A stretch of DNA of 64,000 bases from Escherichia coli (GCF_022846255.1 NZ_AP025682.1), one strand, 5' to 3'. Shown: positions 6,329-53,401, numbered from the stretch's first letter. Translations and numbers: made by a program. The notes: generated by a model not told the origin, from the letters alone.

Positions 6329-7132
6329 ATGAACGCATTATTAACCAATCCCTTTAAAGAACGTTTACGCAAGGGCGAAGTGCAAATTGGTCTGTGGTTA
6401 AGCTCAACGACTGCCTATATGGCAGAAATTGCCGCCACTTCCGGTTATGACTGGTTGCTGATTGACGGGGAGCATGCGCCAAACACCATTCAGGATCTTT
6501 ATCACCAGCTACAGGCGGTAGCGCCCTATGCCAGCCACCCCGTGATCCGTCCGGTGGAAGGCAGTAAGCCGCTGATTAAACAAGTCCTGGATATTGGCGC
6601 GCAAACTCTACTGATCCCAATGGTCGATACTGCCGATCAGGCACGTCAGGTGGTGTCTGCCACGCGCTATCCTCCCTACGGTGAGCGTGGTGTTGGGGCC
6701 AGTGTGGCACGGGCTGCGCGCTGGGGACGCATTGAGAATTACATGGCGCAAGTCAACGATTCGCTTTGTCTGTTGGTGCAGGTGGAAAGTAAAACGGCAC
6801 TGGATAACCTGGACGAAATCCTCGATGTTGAAGGGATTGATGGCGTGTTTATTGGACCTGCGGATCTTTCTGCGTCGTTGGGCTACCCGGATAACGCCGG
6901 GCACCCGGAAGTGCAGCGAATTATTGAAACCAGCATTCGGCGGATCCGTGCTGCGGGTAAAGCGGCTGGTTTTCTGGCTGTGGCTCCTGATATGGCGCAG
7001 CAATGCCTGGCGTGGGGAGCGAACTTTGTCGCTGTTGGCGTTGACACGATGCTCTACAGCGATGCCCTGGATCAACGACTGGCGATGTTTAAATCAGGCA
7101 AAAATGGGCCACGCGTAAAAGGTAGTTATTGA
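6329..7132 (+). CDS. rhmA: 2-keto-3-deoxy-L-rhamnonate aldolase (HpcH/HpaI family), 267 aa
   Basis: Protein recognised; last gene of rhm operon. Confidence 0.85.
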
Positions 7133-7172
7133 TATCAAAGGCCCATGGGGATCGGCTGTGGGCCTGTGTTAA

Positions 7173-7346
7173 TTAGTGGTTATTCGCTGCCAGATCGGCT
7201 TCGCTTAGCTGAGTGGCCGCGAGCACCTGATCACGATCAATGCCCTGCTCCAGCATGCGCAAAGCAATTTTAATGGCTTGTTCATGCATGCCTTCCTGCC
7301 AGCCAATTTGATGTCCTTCCTGCCGTAGCCGTTCAGCAATAGTCAT
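7173..7346 (-). CDS. ypaA: Small Rpn C-terminal-domain-only protein (RpnE/YpaA-like), 57 aa
   Basis: Hand-translated: [57 protein letters not shown]; paralogous to the last ~75 aa of the adjacent yfaD product; same SD-containing sequence attaatctctcctttt precedes it; below the 60-aa ORF-track cutoff. Confidence 0.6.
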   Translation of the reverse strand: MTIAERLRQEGHQIGWQEGMHEQAIKIALRMLEQGIDRDQVLAATQLSEADLAANNH

Positions 7347-7358
7347 TAATCTCTCCTT

Positions 7359-8318
7359 TTAATGACCGTTCGGAATATCAGCATCAGTGAGTTGGGTTGT
7401 CGCCAGCACAATCTCACGTTCAAAGCCCTGTTCCAGCATGCGCAAGGCAATTTTAATGGCTTGTTCATGCATACCTTCTACTTTGCCTTTCTGCAAACCC
7501 TCCAATTTCCCCTCCTGCCAGCCTTCTAATTTACCTTCCTGCCAGCCAATTTGATGTCCTTCCTGCCGCAGCCGTTCAGCAATAGTCATTAATCTCTCCT
7601 TTTGTAGTGGTGAACGTTCGGCAATCTCCTCAATAAAACGGGTGAAACGGGAGGTATCGCCGCATTGCAGCAGATAATTAAACAGCGTTTGTAGCTGGCT
7701 GTCATTAGTGAAGCCTCTAACCAAAAGCGTGGTAATCCTGTCGACCATACCGATTAAATCGCGGTCGCGAATATGCTTTTGAATCAGTTCCAGCAGAGCT
7801 ATACGCCGATGTTGCATGATCTCATCGTCAGGTACGATGGTGATATCCACCAACGGAAAAGCTTCGGTGTACAACTGCCGGGCAAGTTGCGGATCGTCAA
7901 ACTCATCCAGCCAGTTGAGTGAGTACGGGTAGGGCGAGGTTTCGCCATGATAAAACAGCAATGGTACCACCAGCGGAACTCTGTCATAGCCTTTATCCAG
8001 GTGACGTTGCATGGCGGCAGTGGCATAGCGCATTAGTCGAAAAGCCATATTCTTTTCTGCAGAACTTTGATGTTCAATCACGCAGTAGATATAGCCGTCA
8101 CCGTCGCTGGTTTCCACCGACCACAAAACATCCGAGTAGTAAGCGCGTAAACTTTTTTCAATAAAGCTGGTGGGTTCCAGGCGTAAGGTTTGCAGGTTGC
8201 AAAGCTTGCGCAGCGGCTCTGGCAGATGTATTTCGAGAAAATCTCGCGCCGTATCGGGCGAGAACATAAAGGTTTTAAATACCGCATCATGCGGGGAGGA
8301 GGTTGTTGATTCGGTCAT
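7359..8318 (-). CDS. yfaD: Recombination-promoting nuclease RpnB (PD-(D/E)XK, transposase_31/YhgA-like family), 319 aa
   Basis: N-terminus [17 protein letters not shown] typical of Rpn/YhgA family; C-terminal xxEG tetrapeptide repeats. Confidence 0.8.
7473..7544 (-). repeat. In-frame tandem repeat inside yfaD encoding [24 protein letters not shown] (three 24-bp units)
   Basis: Read directly from codons 7473-7544; the ypaA copy has only one WQEG unit. Confidence 0.7.
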
Positions 8319-8511
8319 GGTTGTCCGTCACCTGATGTTTATGATGACGCGACATTACGGTTATCCCAGGCCTTTGACATCTGCCAGTTTCAGCCTTTGC
8401 GAGACGTTTTCAGAGGAATTTTCACTGCGTTGCAACGTATACATTGAGCGCGGAATCGTGGACGCAAAAATGCCCGGTAACAACATGCTTACCGGGCATC
8501 AGATGGGAGTT

Positions 8512-12576
<4,065 letters not shown>

Positions 12577-46453: not shown

Positions 46454-49303
46454 TTGAAATACCTTGCTTCTTTTCGTACAACCCTGAAAGCCTCGCGCTA
46501 CATGTTCAGAGCATTGGCGTTAGTGCTCTGGCTGTTGATTGCTTTTTCATCCGTTTTTTACATCGTTAATGCGTTACATCAGCGAGAATCGGAAATTCGT
46601 CAGGAATTTAATCTGAGTTCCGATCAGGCTCAGCGCTTTATTCAACGCACCTCTGATGTGATGAAAGAGCTGAAGTACATAGCTGAAAATCGCTTATCGG
46701 CAGAAAACGGTGTGCTTTCCCCGCGTGGACGAGAAACGCAGACGGATGTGCCTGCGTTTGAACCGCTGTTTGCTGACTCTGATTGTTCCGCAATGAGTAA
46801 CACCTGGCGAGGTTCTCTGGAGTCATTGGCGTGGTTTATGCGCTACTGGCGCGATAATTTTTCTGCGGCTTACGATCTAAACCGGGTATTTTTAATCGGC
46901 AGCGATAACCTCTGCATGGCTAATTTCGGTCTGCGTGATATGCCAGTGGAACGCGATACCGCGTTAAAAGCTTTGCATGAACGCATTAATAAATATCGAA
47001 ATGCACCACAAGATGATAGTGGCAGTAACCTCTACTGGATCAGCGAAGGTCCGCGCCCTGGCGTCGGGTATTTTTACGCCTTGACGCCAGTTTATCTGGC
47101 GAACCGGTTGCAGGCGCTTTTGGGTGTCGAGCAAACCATCCGGATGGAGAACTTTTTCTTACCTGGTACGTTGCCGATGGGGGTTACCATTCTTGATGAA
47201 AATGGTCATACCCTGATTTCGCTTACCGGACCAGAAAGCAAAATTAAGGGCGATCCTCGCTGGATGCAGGAACGCTCCTGGTTTGGCTATACGGAAGGGT
47301 TCCGGGAGCTGGTGCTGAAGAAAAATCTGCCACCCTCATCGCTAAGCATCGTGTATTCGGTGCCGGTTGATAAGGTGCTGGAACGCATTCGCATGTTGAT
47401 CCTTAACGCAATTTTGCTGAATGTGCTTGCCGGAGCTGCATTGTTTACTCTCGCGCGGATGTACGAGCGGCGTATTTTCATTCCGGCGGAAAGCGACGCC
47501 TTGCGACTGGAAGAACATGAGCAGTTTAATCGCAAGATTGTCGCCTCCGCGCCAGTGGGTATCTGCATTTTGCGTACCGCTGATGGCGTCAATATTTTAA
47601 GTAACGAACTGGCGCATACCTATCTCAATATGCTTACGCATGAGGATCGCCAACGGCTGACACAAATTATCTGTGGGCAGCAGGTCAATTTTGTTGATGT
47701 CCTGACCAGCAACAATACCAATCTGCAAATCAGCTTCGTCCATTCGCGCTATCGTAATGAAAACGTGGCCATTTGTGTGCTTGTGGATGTTTCTTCGCGC
47801 GTGAAGATGGAAGAGTCGTTGCAGGAGATGGCACAAGCAGCGGAACAGGCGAGTCAGTCAAAATCGATGTTCCTTGCCACCGTCAGTCATGAGCTGCGAA
47901 CGCCGCTGTATGGCATTATCGGTAACCTGGATCTGTTGCAAACCAAAGAGTTACCGAAAGGCGTCGATCGTCTGGTGACGGCAATGAACAACTCTTCCAG
48001 CCTGTTGTTGAAAATTATCAGCGATATTCTCGATTTCTCGAAGATTGAATCGGAACAGTTGAAGATCGAACCGCGTGAGTTTTCACCGCGTGAAGTGATG
48101 AACCACATCACCGCCAACTATTTACCGCTGGTGGTACGCAAGCAGTTAGGCTTGTACTGCTTTATTGAACCGGATGTGCCAGTGGCCTTAAATGGCGACC
48201 CGATGCGTTTACAGCAGGTCATCTCCAACCTGTTGAGTAACGCCATAAAATTCACCGATACCGGCTGTATAGTTTTGCATGTTCGCGCTGATGGCGATTA
48301 TCTCTCTATCCGTGTTCGCGATACCGGCGTGGGGATTCCGGCGAAAGAAGTCGTGCGCTTGTTTGATCCCTTCTTCCAGGTCGGAACGGGCGTACAGCGA
48401 AACTTCCAGGGGACCGGTCTGGGTCTGGCGATTTGTGAAAAACTGATCAGCATGATGGACGGCGATATCTCGGTAGATTCAGAACCGGGAATGGGCAGCC
48501 AGTTTACCGTGCGTATTCCGTTGTACGGCGCTCAGTACCCGCAGAAAAAAGGCGTGGAAGGGTTGAGTGGTAAACGCTGCTGGCTGGCGGTCCGCAATGC
48601 GTCGCTCTGTCAGTTCCTGGAAACCAGTTTGCAGCGCAGCGGCATCGTCGTTACAACATACGAAGGGCAGGAACCGACTCCCGAAGATGTGTTAATCACT
48701 GACGAGGTAGTGAGCAAAAAATGGCAGGGTAGAGCGGTAGTGACCTTCTGTCGTCGCCATATTGGTATTCCGCTGGAGAAAGCGCCAGGGGAGTGGGTAC
48801 ACAGTGTGGCTGCCCCGCATGAGCTACCGGCATTGTTGGCGCGTATTTATTTGATCGAGATGGAGAGCGATGATCCTGCTAACGCTCTGCCGTCGACGGA
48901 CAAAGCGGTCAGCGATAACGACGATATGATGATTCTGGTCGTGGATGATCATCCGATTAACCGGCGTCTTCTGGCAGATCAGTTGGGATCGTTGGGCTAT
49001 CAATGTAAAACCGCGAATGATGGCGTCGATGCGCTTAATGTACTTAGCAAGAATCATATTGATATCGTGCTTAGCGACGTCAACATGCCAAATATGGATG
49101 GTTACCGCTTGACGCAACGCATTCGTCAGTTGGGACTGACGTTGCCGGTTATCGGAGTAACTGCTAATGCGTTGGCTGAAGAGAAGCAGCGGTGTCTGGA
49201 GTCCGGTATGGACAGCTGCCTGTCGAAGCCGGTAACGCTGGATGTGATAAAACAGACGCTAACGGTATATGCCGAGAGGGTCAGGAAATCGCGGGATTCG
49301 TAG
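46454..49303 (+). CDS. rcsC: Hybrid sensor kinase RcsC, 949 aa (TTG start) or 933 aa from ATG 46502
   Basis: HisKA/HATPase plus C-terminal receiver; the ORF-track start is TTG. Confidence 0.9.
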   Translation: MKYLASFRTTLKASRYMFRALALVLWLLIAFSSVFYIVNALHQRESEIRQEFNLSSDQAQRFIQRTSDVMKELKYIAENRLSAENGVLSPRGRETQTDVPAFEPLFADSDCSAMSNTWRGSLESLAWFMRYWRDNFSAAYDLNRVFLIGSDNLCMANFGLRDMPVERDTALKALHERINKYRNAPQDDSGSNLYWISEGPRPGVGYFYALTPVYLANRLQALLGVEQTIRMENFFLPGTLPMGVTILDENGHTLISLTGPESKIKGDPRWMQERSWFGYTEGFRELVLKKNLPPSSLSIVYSVPVDKVLERIRMLILNAILLNVLAGAALFTLARMYERRIFIPAESDALRLEEHEQFNRKIVASAPVGICILRTADGVNILSNELAHTYLNMLTHEDRQRLTQIICGQQVNFVDVLTSNNTNLQISFVHSRYRNENVAICVLVDVSSRVKMEESLQEMAQAAEQASQSKSMFLATVSHELRTPLYGIIGNLDLLQTKELPKGVDRLVTAMNNSSSLLLKIISDILDFSKIESEQLKIEPREFSPREVMNHITANYLPLVVRKQLGLYCFIEPDVPVALNGDPMRLQQVISNLLSNAIKFTDTGCIVLHVRADGDYLSIRVRDTGVGIPAKEVVRLFDPFFQVGTGVQRNFQGTGLGLAICEKLISMMDGDISVDSEPGMGSQFTVRIPLYGAQYPQKKGVEGLSGKRCWLAVRNASLCQFLETSLQRSGIVVTTYEGQEPTPEDVLITDEVVSKKWQGRAVVTFCRRHIGIPLEKAPGEWVHSVAAPHELPALLARIYLIEMESDDPANALPSTDKAVSDNDDMMILVVDDHPINRRLLADQLGSLGYQCKTANDGVDALNVLSKNHIDIVLSDVNMPNMDGYRLTQRIRQLGLTLPVIGVTANALAEEKQRCLESGMDSCLSKPVTLDVIKQTLTVYAERVRKSRDS

Positions 49304-49497
49304 GACGGATAAGGCGTTTACGCCGCATCTGGCATTCAGTGCAAATGCCAGATGCGACGCTGACGTGTCTTATCTGGCCTACTTTAATGTAATCTGTTGA
49401 AATAATGGGAATCGTAGGACGGATAAGGCGTTTACGCCGCATCCGGCAATCGGTGCAAATGCCAGATAAGACACTAACGCGTCTTATCTGGCCTACA
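49304..49497. repeat. REP/BIME cluster between convergent rcsC and rcsB
   Basis: Two copies of cgtaggacggataaggcgtttacgccgcatc (about 49297 and 49412) plus inverted partners ending cttatctggcctac. Confidence 0.8.
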
Positions 49498-53153: not shown

Positions 53154-53246
53154 AAAAAAAACCGGATGCGAGGCATCCGGTTGAAATAGGGGTAAACAGA
53201 CATTCAGAAATGAATGACGGTAATAAATAAAGTTAATGATGATAGC
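53154..53246 (-). ncRNA. micF: MicF antisense sRNA (93 nt), repressor of ompF translation
   Basis: Minus strand reads GCTATCATCATTAACTTTATTTATTACCGTCATTCATTTCTGAATGTCTGTTTACCCCTATTTCAACCGGATGCCTCGCATCCGGTTTTTTTT, ending in a hairpin plus U8 terminator; divergent from ompC. Confidence 0.9.
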
Positions 53247-53401
53247 GGGAGATATTCTAGTTGCGAGTGAAGGTTTTGTTTTGACATTCAGTGCTGTCAA
53301 ATACTTAAGAATAAGTTATTGATTTTAACCTTGAATTATTATTGCTTGATGTTAGGTGCTTATTTCGCCATTCCGCAATAATCTTAAAAAGTTCCCTTAT
53401 A

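Follow-up and report, generated by a model that had tools for sequence, protein, structure and literature searches.

A gene-within-gene at rpnE in a non-K-12 Escherichia coli and a diverging downstream copy, ypaA, that is likely not its cognate partner

The rpn genes of Escherichia coli are known to carry in-frame internal starts. Ribo-RET peaks were reported at such starts in all five rpn genes, and the product of the internal start in rpnE was found to be 98% identical to YpaA (Meydan et al. 2019, bioRxiv 10.1101/520783). SPA-tagged RpnE_S, YpaA and RpnE_L were then detected in K-12 by Zhong et al. (2023, PMC10400941), who described ypaA as a second copy stemming from rpnE, named it rpnE_Ss, and solved the structure of RpnA_S (PDB 7TH0). 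In the same work, blocking of the cognate long protein by the small protein was shown for RpnA, RpnB, RpnC and RpnP2 only, and anti-phage defence was shown only for the plasmid protein RpnP2. What is more, RpnC_S inhibits RpnC_L only if the numbers of a 4-aa repeat in the two proteins are equal. This repeat-matching rule is based on RpnC and on a difference of one repeat, a mismatch that abolished inhibition (Zhong et al. 2023, PMC10400941). Overexpressed K-12 RpnE gave no recombination, toxicity or SOS phenotype, the sole paralogue to behave so, with constructs that co-expressed RpnE_S (Kingston et al. 2017).

The nearest known system to the locus described here is rpnE/ypaA of K-12 itself, with the same locus, synteny, SD/ATG and duplication junction; its internal start and second copy have been described and both proteins detected. 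The two alleles differ in repeat number alone, with 0 extra units embedded in rpnE (RpnE of 299 aa) and 1 in YpaA (61 aa) in K-12, against 5 (319 aa) and 0 (57 aa) at the present locus. The rpnC/rpnC_Ss pair of some E. coli strains likewise has a second small C-terminal copy just downstream (Zhong et al. 2023), but it is a different paralogue at a different locus with an independent origin, and it is there that toxicity of the long protein, RpnC_L, and repeat-dependent inhibition were tested. RpnA_L/RpnA_S (7TH0) shares with RpnE the PF04754 domain and the catalytic residues, and its small protein has the same 11-residue start and three-helix layout. However, RpnA in K-12 is without a stand-alone downstream copy, RpnA_S is without the G-x-x-x repeats (RpnE_S and YpaA carry 0-8), and RpnA is an active nuclease whereas no activity of RpnE was seen in the assays employed (Kingston et al. 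2017). A more distant likeness is to FliH/YscL and Yae1-Lto1, in which variable-length GxxxG or deca-GX3 helices mediate dimer or complex formation (PMC2674601, PMC4523923); these share with RpnE the variable-length G-x-x-x helix for homo- or heterodimerisation, but no homology outside the repeat. The arrangement at rpnE-ypaA, including translation of both small proteins, is thus already published in K-12, and what is added here is modest: the duplication junction, the repeat mismatch, the population frequency and the selection on ypaA.

The window, a stretch of 64,000 nt from E. coli (NZ_AP025682.1), carries the locus on its minus strand. ORF calling on the window gave, between glpC (8512-9777) and yfaU, a 319-aa ORF, a 12-nt spacer and a 57-aa ORF. 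The first is the rpnE (yfaD) CDS for full-length RpnE_L (7359..8318, minus strand, 319 aa plus stop), as judged from the ORF, NCBIfam, the RefSeq name and synteny. The second is ypaA, or rpnE_Ss (7173..7346, minus strand, 57 aa plus stop), a stand-alone C-terminal domain that lacks extra repeats (0) and keeps the ancestral tail, ending in EADLAANNH. The spacer is filled by the ypaA SD AAGGAGAGATTA (7347-7358), fused to the rpnE stop TAA (7359-7361), so that stop and SD together occupy 7347..7361 on the minus strand. With only 12 nt between the two genes, translational coupling from rpnE to ypaA is plausible. A scan for sigma-70 consensus sites over 7050-8560, made for the reported internal promoter, returned 0 sites, below the shuffled expectation. 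Beyond ypaA lies the convergent gene yfaU/rhmA (6329-7132, plus strand), and between the two is a GC-rich hairpin (7139..7165), also present in E. albertii, which is likely a bidirectional terminator.

That this is the known rpnE/rpnE_S/ypaA arrangement in a non-K-12 strain of E. coli is near certain. RpnE scores 707 bits on the equivalog model NF007418 (cut-off 583), while the RpnA model NF007361 gives 416 bits, under its cut-off of 583. The gene order is glpC-rpnE-ypaA-yfaU and the RefSeq gene name is rpnE. Of 5,426 complete E. coli genomes, 5,420 carry this DNA at the same place in the chromosome; the closest sequence is from strain 2017.09.02CC (99.8%), and the allele is not that of K-12. 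The original prediction had named the long gene rpnB (yfaD) and the small one ypaA/rpnE. Both labels are wrong: yfaD is rpnE and rpnB is yfcI, that is, RpnE is YfaD and RpnB is YfcI (Kingston et al. 2017), and ypaA is the downstream small copy, rpnE_Ss (Zhong et al. 2023, PMC10400941). The same prediction placed a 57-aa ORF 3' of yfaD, which is there, after a gap of 13 nt, which has to be corrected to 12 nt (7347-7358).

The N-terminal part of RpnE is a PD-(D/E)XK nuclease / Transposase_31 domain (aa 8-209, 7692..8297, minus strand; Pfam PF04754, E = 1e-87). Residues D11, D63, E82, Q84, R94 and the PDDE residue D165, whose mutation altered the activity of RpnA in published work, are all present in the RpnE translation at the equivalent positions. 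The RpnE numbering is that of RpnA, with the RpnA model aligning 1-256 to 1-256. The nuclease core of RpnE therefore appears intact by its residues. In many RefSeq genomes rpnE is annotated by PGAP as 'ISNCY family transposase' and ypaA as a pseudogene fragment. A transposon-type mobile element, as the PGAP name would have it, was rejected: there are no inverted repeats within 7100-8400 and the position is fixed in the 5,420 genomes mentioned above, and published arguments also oppose a transposon reading of Rpn proteins (Zhong et al. 2023, PMC10400941, and a commentary). Against PADLOC-DB v2, YpaA had no match and RpnE a weak one only, of aa 208-300 with C3a178 'putative invertase' (E = 7.8e-5).

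Where does the small protein start within rpnE? The internal Shine-Dalgarno region AAAAGGAGAGATTA (7590..7603, minus strand) stands immediately 5' of an in-frame ATG (7587-7589) at codon 244. The start thus reads AAGGAG, 6 nt and ATG (7587-7603), in frame with rpnE, and the 30 nt 5' of the ATG are identical to K-12. The primary start of rpnE (8318) has no comparable SD, and this difference in strength fits the published excess of the short over the long protein. From the internal ATG runs the embedded rpnE_S (7359..7589, minus strand), 76 aa plus stop in the rpnE frame according to ORF and repeat parsing. The first 19 residues of the 57-aa ORF are those of rpnE from the internal Met (ATG 7589-7587) onward, and AAAAGGAGAGATTA-ATG is found in both places; the original prediction was right on both counts, the shared Met-initiated stretch and the shared SD-containing sequence.

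The DNA match between the two copies is far beyond chance. The segments 7291-7360 and 7534-7603 are identical at 69 of 70 nt, with ATTAATCTCTCCTTTT, the SD and start, inside both blocks, and 7194-7295 has 81% DNA identity to 7377-7478. For 7248-7355 against 7428-7600, which had been predicted to be near-identical, 104 of 108 aligned positions agree once a 60-nt insert is taken out; this near-identity is confined to the SD and codons 1-35, where the 4 changes are all synonymous. Codons 36-52 have diverged: the copies differ at 13 of them and 8 of the changes are nonsynonymous, so that 8 of the 17 codons of the third-helix region carry nonsynonymous differences between YpaA and the embedded copy. 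Overall, YpaA is 82% identical to RpnE_S, the small protein that it resembles most. On the other side, the homology between copies goes on for about 16 nt 5' of the SD and there takes in the final codons of rpnE. The insert corresponds to 5 extra 12-nt (4-aa, G-x-x-x) units in the embedded copy only, none being in ypaA (7473..7532, minus strand; from TRF, the alignment gap and repeat parsing). They belong to a periodic array of 12/24 nt at 7474-7547 (TRF period 24), which encodes the five added 4-aa units. Taken together, the architecture is the one that had been claimed, with one gene nested in another and the C-terminal domain duplicated as a free-standing gene, in agreement with the published Rpn model.

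How did the second copy arise? In E. albertii, glpC and yfaU flank an rpnE of 312 aa that is present as a single copy. Up to GAT this sequence runs collinear with the first copy, and from there on with the 3' end of ypaA, the stop and the terminator hairpin. This collinearity with a single-copy locus on both sides points to a tandem duplication, with the junction at GAT|ATT(G)CCGAACG. The linker ATTGCCGAACGTTCACCACTACAAAAGGAG lies 5' of the internal start, and its counterpart at the 3' end of rpnE is ATT-CCGAACGGTCA-----TTAAAAGGAG. Seen from the downstream copy, the first 15 nt (7362-7376, ATTCCGAACGGTCAT) are a decayed version of the linker ATTGCCGAACGTTCACCACTACA and encode IPNGH. The end of rpnE is now ATT CCG AAC GGT CAT TAA, and the last five residues of RpnE, IPNGH, together with the stop are thus the decayed linker. 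From the copy-vs-copy and E. albertii alignments, the upstream copy of the unit is 249 nt (7377..7625, minus strand), that is 189 nt plus the 60-nt repeat expansion, and the downstream copy is 183 nt (7194..7376, minus strand). On this evidence a stretch of about 189 bp, made up of the first 51 codons and the 36 nt of linker and SD ahead of them, was duplicated in tandem and gave rise to ypaA; ypaA keeps the ancestral 3' end, and the junction forms the present stop of rpnE. A unit of 189 bp is divisible by 3 and would at first have preserved the reading frame, giving a protein with the C-terminal domain twice in succession. Deletions of 1 nt and 5 nt in the duplicated linker then produced the present TAA stop of rpnE, and the second domain is now accessible solely via its own SD/ATG, 12 nt downstream.

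The single-copy loci agree in form with ypaA at their ends: all 4 of the 4 sampled from complete E. coli genomes, and that of the GTDB representative, end in a ypaA-type tail. The outgroup search demanded an exact DNA pattern, which may miss other Escherichia; it returned only E. albertii and the GTDB representative of E. coli. The synonymous differences do not fit one simple event. Between the copies pS is about 0.6 in codons 36-51 and 0.13-0.32 in codons 1-35, while between E. coli and E. albertii it is 0.36-0.44, below the between-copy value of codons 36-51. A simple recent duplication is therefore insufficient without mosaic recombination or 5' gene conversion. The pattern suggests either that the 5' part underwent gene conversion or that the 3' part is mosaic or of greater age, in what is a short segment.

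The small proteins are related to RpnA_S in sequence and probably in fold. Residues 1-55 of YpaA align to 1-47 of RpnA_S (PDB 7TH0) with E = 4e-5 by phmmer, the one gap falling where the repeats are inserted. The full-length RpnE as query against PDB gave a chance flagellar match only, and it was the short query that reached 7TH0. An AF2 model of the 76-aa RpnE_S has an unbroken helix at 3-53, through the repeats, and a second helix at 58-65 (pLDDT 71); its best PDB match by Foldseek is again 7TH0 (probability 0.99, target-normalised TM 0.72, E = 0.18), with pLDDT and E-value both modest. In precomputed Pfam annotation, PF27070 HTH_Rpn_C covers the C-terminus of RpnE and YpaA. A Pfam-A scan of YpaA alone, with a release that predates PF27070, found no significant family, and the Pfam scans of RpnE and YpaA gave no match to DUF4351, a domain that Zhong et al. 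assign to some of the stand-alone RpnS. The embedded repeats form a perfect (G-x-x-x)n run. The repeat region of RpnE also has weak, composition-driven matches to FliH models (E = 1.5e-7) and to Pfam Yae1_N (E = 0.025). The relation of the RpnE repeats to the FliH and Yae1 helices is a resemblance in possible mechanism, not homology. Even so, the likeness to GxxxG helices offers a simple rationale for a pairing specificity that depends on how many units there are.

Is the arrangement common, and do the two copies change together? The two-copy junction was found in 3,133 of 5,426 complete E. coli genomes (about 58%), the remainder matching the SD/start part only. Repeats were counted in the window and in 19 two-copy loci of complete genomes taken from different parts of the similarity ranking. 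In the sampled genomes the embedded copy carried 0-8 of the 4-aa units and ypaA 0-6. Written as embedded/ypaA, the combinations 5/0, 0/1, 8/6 and 8/4 were each seen at 3 loci, 5/1 and 5/2 at 2 loci each, and 6/2, 6/4, 8/2, 1/4 and 3/1 at 1 locus each; the window is one with 5 extra repeats embedded and 0 in ypaA. The two numbers were equal in 0 of the 20 two-copy loci and 0 of the 11 distinct combinations. Active avoidance of equal numbers was considered and rejected: independence predicts about 5% of matches, and 0 of 11 is not significant. Nevertheless the two copies are not kept matched, and they lack co-variation among these sampled strains, which are phylogenetically non-independent. Linkage of particular pairings was seen in further contigs. 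Among 10 with the exact 57-aa YpaA, 8 were two-copy, all with a 5-repeat rpnE (1 of them with an internal stop in rpnE), and the other 2 were single-copy with a truncated rpnE. Another 10 contigs with the 61-aa YpaA of K-12 always had a 0-repeat rpnE, the 0/1 pairing. As for selection, ypaA is intact in 37 of 37 two-copy loci, and pN/pS of its non-repeat codons is about 0.11, equal to that of the embedded copy, by crude pairwise sums over non-independent alleles. The small gene is under purifying selection and is not decaying.

The explanation that we regard as best for the whole, and hold with good though not full confidence, is that rpnE is a gene-within-gene for RpnE_L and RpnE_S, and that ypaA is a duplicated, diverging and likely non-cognate copy. 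Following this explanation, rpnE encodes a YhgA-like PD-(D/E)XK protein, RpnE_L, while the strong SD and the ATG at codon 244 would yield the C-terminal helical domain separately, as RpnE_S. The latter would pair with the identical domain of RpnE_L via the long helix 1 and render the nuclease inactive. By analogy to RpnA, RpnB, RpnC and RpnP2, it is likely that RpnE_S restrains RpnE_L through such helix-1 pairing. The toxic-nuclease half of this model is putative for RpnE, being taken from its paralogues, and overexpression in K-12 was negative (Kingston et al. 2017). The embedded copy and ypaA are now evolving apart, with 5 against 0 repeats in helix 1 and strong divergence in the third-helix region.

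Then what is ypaA for, if the two copies no longer match? Given the repeat-matching rule of RpnC and the 5 versus 0 repeats here, a rescue role for ypaA is doubtful, and we infer that in this strain it is most likely not the cognate inhibitor of the co-resident RpnE_L, although the RpnC rule may not transfer to RpnE. One tentative suggestion is that ypaA is kept by selection as a non-cognate RpnS, with a helix 1 whose length is always unlike that of the resident pair, and that it serves as an archived specificity cassette or as a trans-acting partner. In the latter case it might possibly modulate the availability of RpnE_S or act as a decoy for phage factors.

Another explanation, possible but to be held with slightly more doubt, is that ypaA works as a recombination cassette, so that exchange or deletion would swap the C-terminal specificity domain of rpnE, repeats and helix 3 alike, in one step. 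The 5' parts of the two copies are 96-99% identical, which offers a substrate for homologous exchange, and it is the 5' 105 nt that stay near-identical while the 3' part has diverged; however, gene conversion is putative here, and conservation of so short a 5' part could also come from constraint on the protein. Traces of exchange may be seen in individual alleles. KIEG WQEG occurs in both copies of loci L004, L011 and L015, and LQQG in both copies of L010. The tail and repeats of some single-copy rpnE genes equal the ypaA of other strains, as in the O157:H7 locus L005, which equals the ypaA of locus L012, and the single-copy locus L014 resembles the K-12 ypaA. These single-copy alleles agree with a route of fusion and deletion to which Zhong et al. 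(2023, PMC10400941) had drawn attention. Such a deletion-fusion destroys the cassette, though, and the route is hence one-way.

The original prediction took ypaA for a second functional antitoxin, which would add to RpnE_S in the rescue from RpnE_L toxicity. We consider this unlikely. YpaA is expressed in K-12, shares 19 N-terminal residues and 82% identity with RpnE_S, is encoded 12 nt downstream behind an identical SD, and is under purifying selection. But the repeat numbers are unequal in 20 of 20 loci and 11 of 11 combinations, when a mismatch of one repeat was enough to end inhibition in RpnC, and the third-helix region differs in 8 of 17 codons. Moreover, the extra copy is missing in 42% of genomes, and RpnE showed no toxicity in the assays of Kingston et al. 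(2017).

Least probable of all is that ypaA is a neutral by-product of the duplication, translated through its inherited SD/ATG and functionless: its lack in about 42% of complete genomes, the resemblance of single-copy loci to simple deletions or fusions between repeats and the frequent PGAP call of a pseudogene fragment would suit such a by-product, but the ORF is intact in 37 of 37 two-copy loci, its pN/pS of about 0.11 equals that of an embedded copy itself constrained within rpnE, it persists in at least 11 repeat haplotypes, and the protein is detectable in K-12. Both the non-cognate paralogue and the recombination cassette fit the data better.

As a case of one gene nested in another, the rpnE-ypaA locus could stand in a textbook, though it had been described before. 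It also exposes an annotation problem, with ypaA as a pseudogene fragment and rpnE as a transposase in many RefSeq genomes. For the Rpn field it puts a sharper question: what is the binding partner of the conserved, repeat-mismatched downstream copy? The answer would tell if stand-alone RpnS genes act as antitoxins, as cassettes for diversification or in some other way, and would test the generality of the repeat-matching rule.

The synonymous divergence between the two copies of the small ORF, the one embedded in rpnE (7359-8318, minus strand) and the stand-alone ypaA (7173-7346, minus strand), is uneven along their length. For codons 36-51 (embedded copy within 7377-7479, ypaA within 7194-7296), pS is about 0.6, which is higher than that between E. 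coli and E. albertii for the same gene (0.36-0.44), while over codons 1-35 the two copies are much closer. How did such a pattern arise? Because the high divergence is found in codons 36-51 and codons 1-35 are so much closer, there are hints of 5' gene conversion or of a mosaic origin. A single-copy rpnE in the GTDB representative of E. coli (SCPM-O-B-8794, locus L018, 1403-2173) has a mosaic tail of 22 residues, in which helix 3 of the upstream-copy type is joined to a ypaA-type end. This allele may represent an intermediate stage, or it may have formed by recombination of one copy with the other.

The 4-aa repeats of RpnE at 7473-7547 (aa 258-282) form a perfect G-x-x-x run, which gives weak profile matches to FliH (NCBIfam, E = 1.5e-7) and Yae1_N (Pfam, E = 0.025). 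Both of these likewise have GxxxG/deca-GX3 dimerisation helices of variable length.

Some genomes keep the small ORF or ORFs intact while the nuclease part of rpnE is disrupted: in strain 2012C-4502 (L019/L036) a stop codon interrupts the frame after codon 61, and two single-copy loci, L033 and L034, have rpnE truncated at 217 and 213 aa, respectively. In strain UTME-10 (L006, 2227-3455), rpnE is interrupted by an IS2 element at about codon 211, a short way upstream of the region that holds the internal start. In strain RM14723 (L009, 1605-1937), the annotation gives the adjacent yfaU, the gene for 2-keto-3-deoxy-L-rhamnonate aldolase, as a pseudogene containing an internal stop.

Elsewhere in the window, Rfam places two adjacent naRNA4 (REP-type) elements at 49303-49493 (plus strand) and MicF at 53154-53247 (minus strand), and there are no tRNA genes in the 64 kb; this content is ordinary for the E. 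coli region concerned.

Note that ypaA is labelled a pseudogene ('incomplete; missing N-terminus') by NCBI PGAP in many RefSeq genomes, with the feature starting at the base right after the rpnE stop, and that rpnE is named 'ISNCY family transposase'. The problem concerns 7173-7361 in the window and rpnE loci L001, L004, L007-L012 and L019-L027. Both labels look like annotation artefacts, given to a small gene that is expressed and to a nuclease that is not a transposase.
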